Below, piece by piece: positions 1-335 of a stretch of DNA of 335 nt. Positions within the stretch are counted from its first letter, which is position 1; the number at the start of each line of letters is the position of its first letter. The DNA is from a phage. The notes under the pieces are model-generated. The model was not told the origin of the DNA. It worked only from the letters and a program-made list of their open reading frames with translations, and did not search any database. The DNA is taken from sequence record KY304109.1; one strand, written 5' to 3'. The translations under genes and the position numbers were made by a program.

Positions 1-335
1 CGCACGATACCACTTCACCTCGGGCAATGGCGCAAACTCTGCGGAATCTGACGCTGGGTAAACCATTGGGCGACAGCCAACCGGCGCAGCTGGTGCAATG
101 GATGAAAGGCAATACCACCGGTGCACCGAGCATTCAAGCTGGACTGCCTGCTTCCTGGGTTGTGGGGGAAAAAACCGGCAACGGCGGCTATAGCACAACC
201 AAACATATCGCGGTGATCTGGCCAAAAGATCGTGCGCCGCTGATTCTGGTCACTTACTTCACCCAGCCTCAACCTAAGGCAGAAAGCCGTCGCGATGTAT
301 TAGCGTCGGCGGCTAAAATCGTCACCGACGCTATA
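1..335 (+). CDS. blaCTX-M: Class A extended-spectrum beta-lactamase, CTX-M family (group 1-like), partial CDS truncated at both window edges; first complete codon at nt 3, last at 333-335; no start or stop codon in window
   Basis: The + strand frame starting at nt 3 is open for 111 codons. Its translation matches the C-terminal third of CTX-M enzymes as I recall them: [83 protein letters not shown]. The nucleotide sequence from about nt 207 to 329 matches my recollection of blaCTX-M-15 exactly. The frame is missing from the supplied ORF track, presumably because it has no stop codon in the window. Confidence 0.95.
171..179 (+). other. blaCTX-M: Codons for the conserved class A beta-lactamase KTG motif (Ambler Lys234-Thr235-Gly236)
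   Basis: Codons aaa-acc-ggc encode K-T-G in the context [11 protein letters not shown], the position of the KTG box on the B3 strand of class A enzymes. Ambler numbering was derived by counting back from Arg276 and forward from Asp179 and is approximate. Confidence 0.85.

Follow-up and report, generated by a model that had tools for sequence, protein, structure and literature searches.

The DNA analyzed here, a stretch of 335 nucleotides that we call the window, is a 3' partial copy, comprising the last third, of the very common resistance gene blaCTX-M-15, of the D240G type. It departs from that gene by 18 base substitutions, and with a probability of roughly 80% we regard these as noise that was never exposed to natural selection, artefactual or artificial in origin. 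The likeliest sources would be faulty base calls or consensus errors where sequence quality was low, the two untrimmed ends among them, or else deliberate or in-silico random substitution. The three new proline codons of the window would have been neither designed nor evolved, and would reflect the occurrence of five G>C changes in an Ala- and Arg-rich gene. In practical terms, the window is a very common resistance gene in corrupted form and should be kept out of catalogues of new CTX-M variants.

In the original prediction, the sequence had been taken to be artificial, erroneous or else a gene without function, on the basis of these three prolines and one new glutamine, several of which were expected to lie in helices. 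That conclusion is the best reading of the data. It is carried mostly by the spectrum of the changes, their cost against a profile of the family, their placement and the absence of counterparts, whereas the structural premise from which it was drawn proved only half right. All of the evidence points to unselected change.

Identity of the gene and catalogue of the changes

The sole open frame of the window is frame 3 of the plus strand, which encodes 111 amino acids without a stop, ends in the letters VTDAI and corresponds to CTX-M-15 residues 181-291 in precursor numbering, that is, from Ambler R178 to the last sense codon. The sequence halts exactly on this last sense codon, with the TAA stop absent. 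Compared base by base with blaCTX-M-15 of plasmid pC15-1a (NC_005327), the window is identical at 317 of 335 bases (94.6%), with 18 substitutions and no indels; the substitutions create 12 non-synonymous and 3 synonymous codons (Table 1). The closest DNA among 72,556 plasmids and 5,426 E. coli genomes is that of CTX-M-15 and CTX-M-55, at 96.0% over window positions 6-330.

The encoded protein is placed in the same family. CTX-M-15 chains such as 4hbt rank first for it among solved structures, and the CTX-M and KLUC models give the top scores among family models. On the NCBIfam blaCTX-M model (NF033089), the window fragment scores 210.1 bits over model positions 182-290/291 and the genuine CTX-M-15 fragment 239.1 bits; the full-length cut-off of 570 bits is out of reach for 111 residues. 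The top NCBIfam match is in fact KLUC, slightly above CTX-M, and this affinity is meaningless, since genuine CTX-M-15 ranks alike. The K234-T235-G236 motif of strand B3 is retained (window 171-179, aaa acc ggc), as is Gly at Ambler 240 (GGC at 186-188), the signature of CTX-M-15 (D240G on the CTX-M-3 backbone). The window starts at Ambler 178, and the catalytic S70-x-x-K73 and S130-D-N elements and E166 with the omega loop all sit upstream of the 335 nucleotides. With 12 of 111 residues different, the protein is not identical to the CTX-M-15 allele.

Two other candidate features of the window can be set aside. An antisense open reading frame of 85 amino acids that begins with TTG (window 15-272, minus strand) lies across the bla frame. 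This frame is a mechanical by-product, and nothing supports it as a gene. A match to the Rfam mir-138 precursor (window 82-128, plus strand) reaches 19.3 bits against a gathering threshold of 50, with E = 0.12, and is attributed to chance.

The original prediction had read the codons at 63-65, 81-83 and 126-128 as Pro in place of Ala, Arg and Ala, each by a single G>C change, and this agrees with the reference comparison. Its reading of caa at 96-98 as Gln in place of Thr is likewise correct, the change being one of two bases. Of the 18 differences from CTX-M-15, no more than 6 belong to the region that it dealt with, the synonymous change in Q222 at position 137 being counted among them. The remaining 12 lie at positions 4, 5, 170, 181, 185, 192, 197, 203, 204, 331, 333 and 335. 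The patch at 170-204 is denser than the proline region.

Table 1. Features of the window and its differences from blaCTX-M-15 (Ambler residue numbers unless marked as precursor; bits are profile costs)
Feature	Position	Strand	Remarks
Partial CDS, blaCTX-M-15 codons 181-291	3..335	+	Gap-free alignment; stop codon absent
R178H, CGT>CAC, changes at 4 and 5	3..5	+	Both changes among the first 5 nt
A198P, GCA>CCA, G>C at 63	63..65	+	Precursor 201; H8-H9 loop in both models; Pro 0/81; -3.0 bits
R204P, CGG>CCG, G>C at 82	81..83	+	Precursor 207; first turn of H9; Arg 64/81, Pro 0/81; -5.5 bits
T209Q, ACA>CAA, AC>CA at 96-97	96..98	+	Precursor 212; inside H9; Gln 7/81; +0.7 bits
A219P, GCG>CCG, G>C at 126	126..128	+	Precursor 222; first turn of short H10; TEM-1 Pro219; -1.3 bits
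Q222 synonymous, CAG>CAA, change at 137	135..137	+	Comparison with reference
Second patch, 7 changes in 35 nt (170-204)	168..206	+	KTG motif, strand B3, B3-B4 turn
Changes within second patch: D233E (170), S237N (181), G238 synonymous (185), G242S (192)		+	Comparison with reference
Changes within second patch, continued: T243 synonymous (197), N245K (203), D246H (204)		+	Comparison with reference
Clean run, 126 bases identical to blaCTX-M-15	205..330	+	P = 0.003
Gly>Ala (precursor 290), GGT>GCT; Leu>Ile (precursor 291), TTG>ATA	330..335	+	Changes at 331, 333 and 335

Spectrum and placement of the changes

Natural relatives differ from CTX-M-15 largely at synonymous codons (34 synonymous and 21 non-synonymous for CTX-M-2, 44 and 19 for CTX-M-14), with a third-position share of 66-68% and with transitions at least as numerous as transversions. 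The window has 7 transitions against 11 transversions, and third codon positions account for 39% of its changes. It thus shows neither the excess of synonymous and third-position changes nor the restriction of changes to variable sites by which purifying selection is recognized. When changes are simulated at random, 12.8 non-synonymous codons and 4.2 synonymous ones are expected.

Several features might be held against the noise interpretation. The reading frame is intact and without a stop, yet 58% of the random simulations are also free of stop codons. The changes D233E, Leu>Ile and S237N are chemically conservative, and T209Q and A219P are compatible with the family. Finally, a dN/dS ratio near or above 1 is also expected of strong diversifying or laboratory selection.

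The placement of the changes is far from even. There are two in positions 1-5, none in 6-62, six in 63-137, none in 138-169, seven in 170-204, none in 205-330 and three in 331-335. A clean run of 126 nt has a probability of 0.003 if 18 changes are placed uniformly. Of the 18, five sit no more than 5 nt from one of the ends (P = 5e-5). Uniform random mutation is therefore ruled out as an account of where the changes lie, though not of what type they are. The enrichment at the ends is without a biological rationale and is typical of the ends of reads or records, or of some artificial process. Indels are numerous in noisy long-read assemblies such as CP133391.1 (see below), and a few are usual in Sanger reads of low quality. 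Their complete lack in the window is more easily reconciled with in-silico or synthetic substitution than with ordinary read error, while the end enrichment fits read ends.

The spectrum also has a bias of its own. On the coding strand, G is the base altered in ten of the 18 cases (five G>A and five G>C; P = 0.02), a strand-asymmetric pattern, and the five G>C changes are in excess (P = 0.03). No shared sequence context is evident around the G>C sites.

Several of these properties would be expected of real DNA produced by laboratory random mutagenesis of blaCTX-M-15, sequenced correctly and subjected to little or no functional selection, for which doped-oligonucleotide cassettes, error-prone PCR and a hypermutator system are candidate routes. 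Such DNA could carry substitutions only, with transversions outnumbering transitions and codon positions hit at random; the two discrete patches of about 35-75 nt resemble the products of cassettes, and the profile cost (see below) equals the random expectation. We nevertheless judge this origin unlikely. The surplus of changes in the outermost 5 nt on either side (P = 5e-5) argues for a read-end or record-end effect and not for cassettes. Error-prone polymerases produce few types of change more seldom than G>C transversions, which yet make up 5 of the 18 changes, and the searches turned up these variants in neither papers nor records.

Proline codons and conserved residues

When 18 random base changes were simulated in the segment, at least three new prolines appeared in 5% of the simulations. 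Proline is the commonest outcome of a G>C change (21 of the 100 G sites of the segment), because Ala GCN and Arg CGN codons abound, and given the five G>C changes observed, the probability of at least three prolines is 0.06. The cluster of prolines exceeds chance only marginally, and it is not proline-specific. These marginal statistics, together with the G>C spectrum, argue that the prolines are a by-product of the spectrum and carry no signal of their own.

The mapping of positions 198, 204, 209 and 219 onto a structure, proposed along with the original prediction, was carried out with AlphaFold models. The model of the window fragment (mean pLDDT 72.7) has helices at Ambler 183-194, 203-211 and 217-222 and strands at 230-236 and 243-251. 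Its best Foldseek match is CTX-M-15 4HBT, and since the superposition is only moderate (TM 0.60, rmsd 6.6 A), this model is used for no inference about stability. A model of a wild-type-like fragment, P0001, has low confidence (mean pLDDT 47) and serves for helix limits only; its helices span 183-193, 201-213 and 218-224, the classical limits of H8, H9 and H10 in class A enzymes. H9 begins two residues later in the window model than in the P0001 model. P0001 itself, a protein of 157 amino acids from an NCBI contig of 344 kb, consists of the C-terminal part of a CTX-M enzyme with Asp240, and so CTX-M-3-like, preceded by about 37 unrelated N-terminal residues; it is probably the product of a truncated gene with a spurious upstream start.

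The four positions thus fall in a loop (198), in the first turn of H9 (204), in the interior of H9 (209) and in the first turn of H10 (219). A helical setting, expected in the original prediction for several of these positions, applies to the last three and not to 198. The further supposition, that the prolines are destabilizing, is overturned on its own terms for A219P, which is the native Pro219 of TEM-1; only A198P and R204P are foreign to the family. In a study of TEM-1 (PMC13144301), proline proved lethal or almost lethal at every one of the 11 sites of a helix. That helix is another one, around residues 120-124, and it offers no more than an analogy for proline intolerance.

Tolerance at each site was judged from an alignment of 81 near-full-length class A enzymes taken from clusters at 50% identity. 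Position 198 is occupied by A, V, G, T or I and position 204 by R (64), Q (10) or K (7), with Pro at neither (0/81). Positions 209 and 219 are variable, and both of the new residues occur there naturally (Gln 7/81 and Pro 1/81, respectively). R204P accordingly stands out as the only plainly unfavorable proline, A198P affects a loop, and A219P and T209Q are compatible with the family.

Besides R204P, the worst-looking changes fall outside the region of the original prediction. N245 is kept in 77 of the 81 enzymes and D246 in 78, with neither Lys nor His at the respective positions (0/81); G242 is Gly in 68 and Ser in one; and Glu at 233 is a minority natural variant (8/81). Published conservation values for class A enzymes are 92.5% for N245, 96.4% for D246 and 96.8% for D233 (with Glu in 2% at 233), and second-shell roles are described for these residues (PMC9112487). 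None of the three conserved second-shell residues, D233, N245 and D246, is retained in the window.

A profile built from the 81 homologues expresses the same results as costs. The worst single substitution is R204P, followed at the conserved sites by N245K (-4.6 bits), D246H (-4.2) and G242S (-3.0), and D233E costs 2.1 bits (-2.1). N245K and D246H are thus each more costly than two of the three prolines. The score falls by 25 bits, from 184.9 for the wild-type fragment to 159.9 for the window, and 18 random changes scored on the same profile give a mean of 156-157 bits (sd 8), with 34-38% of the simulations scoring at least as high as the window. Curated models show corresponding drops from wild type to window, from 239.1 to 210.1 bits for CTX-M, from 55.0 to 42.9 for PF13354 and from 45.5 to 35.5 for PF00144. 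A protein made from this sequence would be impaired, mainly by R204P, N245K, D246H and G242S and not by the prolines as a class.

These results bear on the idea of a natural CTX-M-15-derived allele, functional or under diversifying selection, in which the prolines cap or shorten H9 and H10 and the B3-B4 region is remodelled. The open frame is what such an allele would have, as are the retained KTG motif and G240; Pro219 has its precedent in TEM-1 and Gln209 occurs naturally; and positions 204 and 219 lie in first helix turns, where proline is least harmful. We consider this reading very improbable. R204, N245 and D246 are replaced by residues found in none of the 81 homologues, the synonymous excess is absent, the profile cost is indistinguishable from that of random mutation, the end enrichment is left without a biological rationale, and no counterpart was found in any of the collections described below. 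By the same token, we hold out little prospect that the window represents an expressed descendant of CTX-M-15 that acquired 12 substitutions in its last 111 residues through rapid diversifying or laboratory selection. It is just as doubtful that such a descendant has a remodelled B3-B4 hairpin (D233E, S237N, G242S, N245K and D246H) with prolines at the starts of H9 and H10. Were the allele real, CTX-M would unexpectedly tolerate Pro in place of the conserved Arg204 and other residues in place of N245 and D246, which are near-invariant, the enzyme would be by far the most divergent of the CTX-M-1 group, and it would be relevant to resistance-gene surveillance and to models of enzyme stability.

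Counterparts and known enzymes

Among the plasmid records that match the CTX-M-15 segment, 2255 of 2517 are at least 99% identical to CTX-M-15, so that natural variation in the segment is far below the divergence of the window; CTX-M-1 is 98.8% identical to CTX-M-15 here. No plasmid or E. coli genome nearer to the window than CTX-M-15 itself was found by megablast and blastn among the 72,556 plasmids and 5,426 E. coli genomes, and in the variable part (window 40-215) no plasmid exceeds the 92.6% of CTX-M-15. A mosaic with another CTX-M group was considered and rejected, as the window-specific bases shared with CTX-M-1, CTX-M-2 and CTX-M-14 number 0, 0 and 1 of 18, which is the level of chance.

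These counts also bear on the idea that the window stems from a natural copy of blaCTX-M-15 that has become a pseudogene and is decaying as neutral mutations accumulate. A dN/dS ratio of about 1 and a random-like profile cost would be in keeping with decay. However, blaCTX-M-15 was mobilised only decades ago, and a divergence of 5.4% is implausible; there are no intermediates among the 2517 plasmid copies. Neutral decay in bacteria is moreover rich in transitions and accompanied by indels, whereas the window has more transversions than transitions and no indels, and its changes are patchy and end-enriched instead of evenly spread. Decay is in our view the least credible of the origins considered.

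Searches at the protein level and by exact match gave the same outcome. No homologous protein with any of the changes appeared among the 53 candidates listed from about 5.8 billion protein clusters, but a missing row is weak evidence here, because the word-indexed search gave fragments only and left the full-length CTX-M-15 cluster (89% identical) unlisted. The protein search was backed up by DNA searches and exact look-ups. An exact DNA scan for the stretch with A198P and R204P had no hits in genome contigs or in metagenome contigs (0 in each), A198P alone had none in genome contigs (genomes of 185,579 species) and A219P alone none in metagenome contigs (241 million metagenome records). The exact protein, with any contig encoding it, has no record among about 15 billion sequences, and none of the 12 amino-acid changes occurs in the CTX-M records returned by the searches. 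A literature search found no paper naming these substitutions in CTX-M, and nothing useful on Arg204 in CTX-M. Taken as a whole, these negative results argue against a natural allele and are consistent with the preferred reading of a known gene overlaid with unselected substitutions.

The systems nearest to the window are blaCTX-M-15 (WP_000239590.1) and blaCTX-M-55, which are identical to each other in this segment and colinear with the window without gaps, and from which the window differs by the 12 amino-acid changes that result from its 18 substitutions. A second known case is instructive with regard to corruption. The K. pneumoniae plasmid p377C1 (CP133391.1) likewise carries, in a public record, a corrupted CTX-M-1-group gene that is no longer annotated as a CTX-M allele; its two pieces, at 31-374, are labelled 'serine hydrolase' and 'hypothetical protein'. 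That copy is ridden with indels and its open reading frame is broken in two, while all differences of the window are substitutions and its frame is unbroken. Noise of long-read assembly was rejected as an account of the window on this comparison, since the real noisy copy is full of indels and the window has none. The last 52 nt of the CP133391.1 gene are CTX-M-14-like, with 1 mismatch as against 12 to CTX-M-15, and the gene appears to be a CTX-M-1/9-group hybrid allele masked by assembly errors.

TEM-1 (PDB 1xxm, 1erm, 1btl and others) provides the more distant comparison, at 34% identity in the alignment. In an ungapped alignment with a TEM-1 sequence identical to the solved chains, its native Pro219 stands opposite the new Pro of the window, so that this one change has a precedent in a known enzyme. 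It has Pro at neither 198 nor 204, and at 204 TEM-1, like CTX-M-15, has Arg opposite the Pro of the window.
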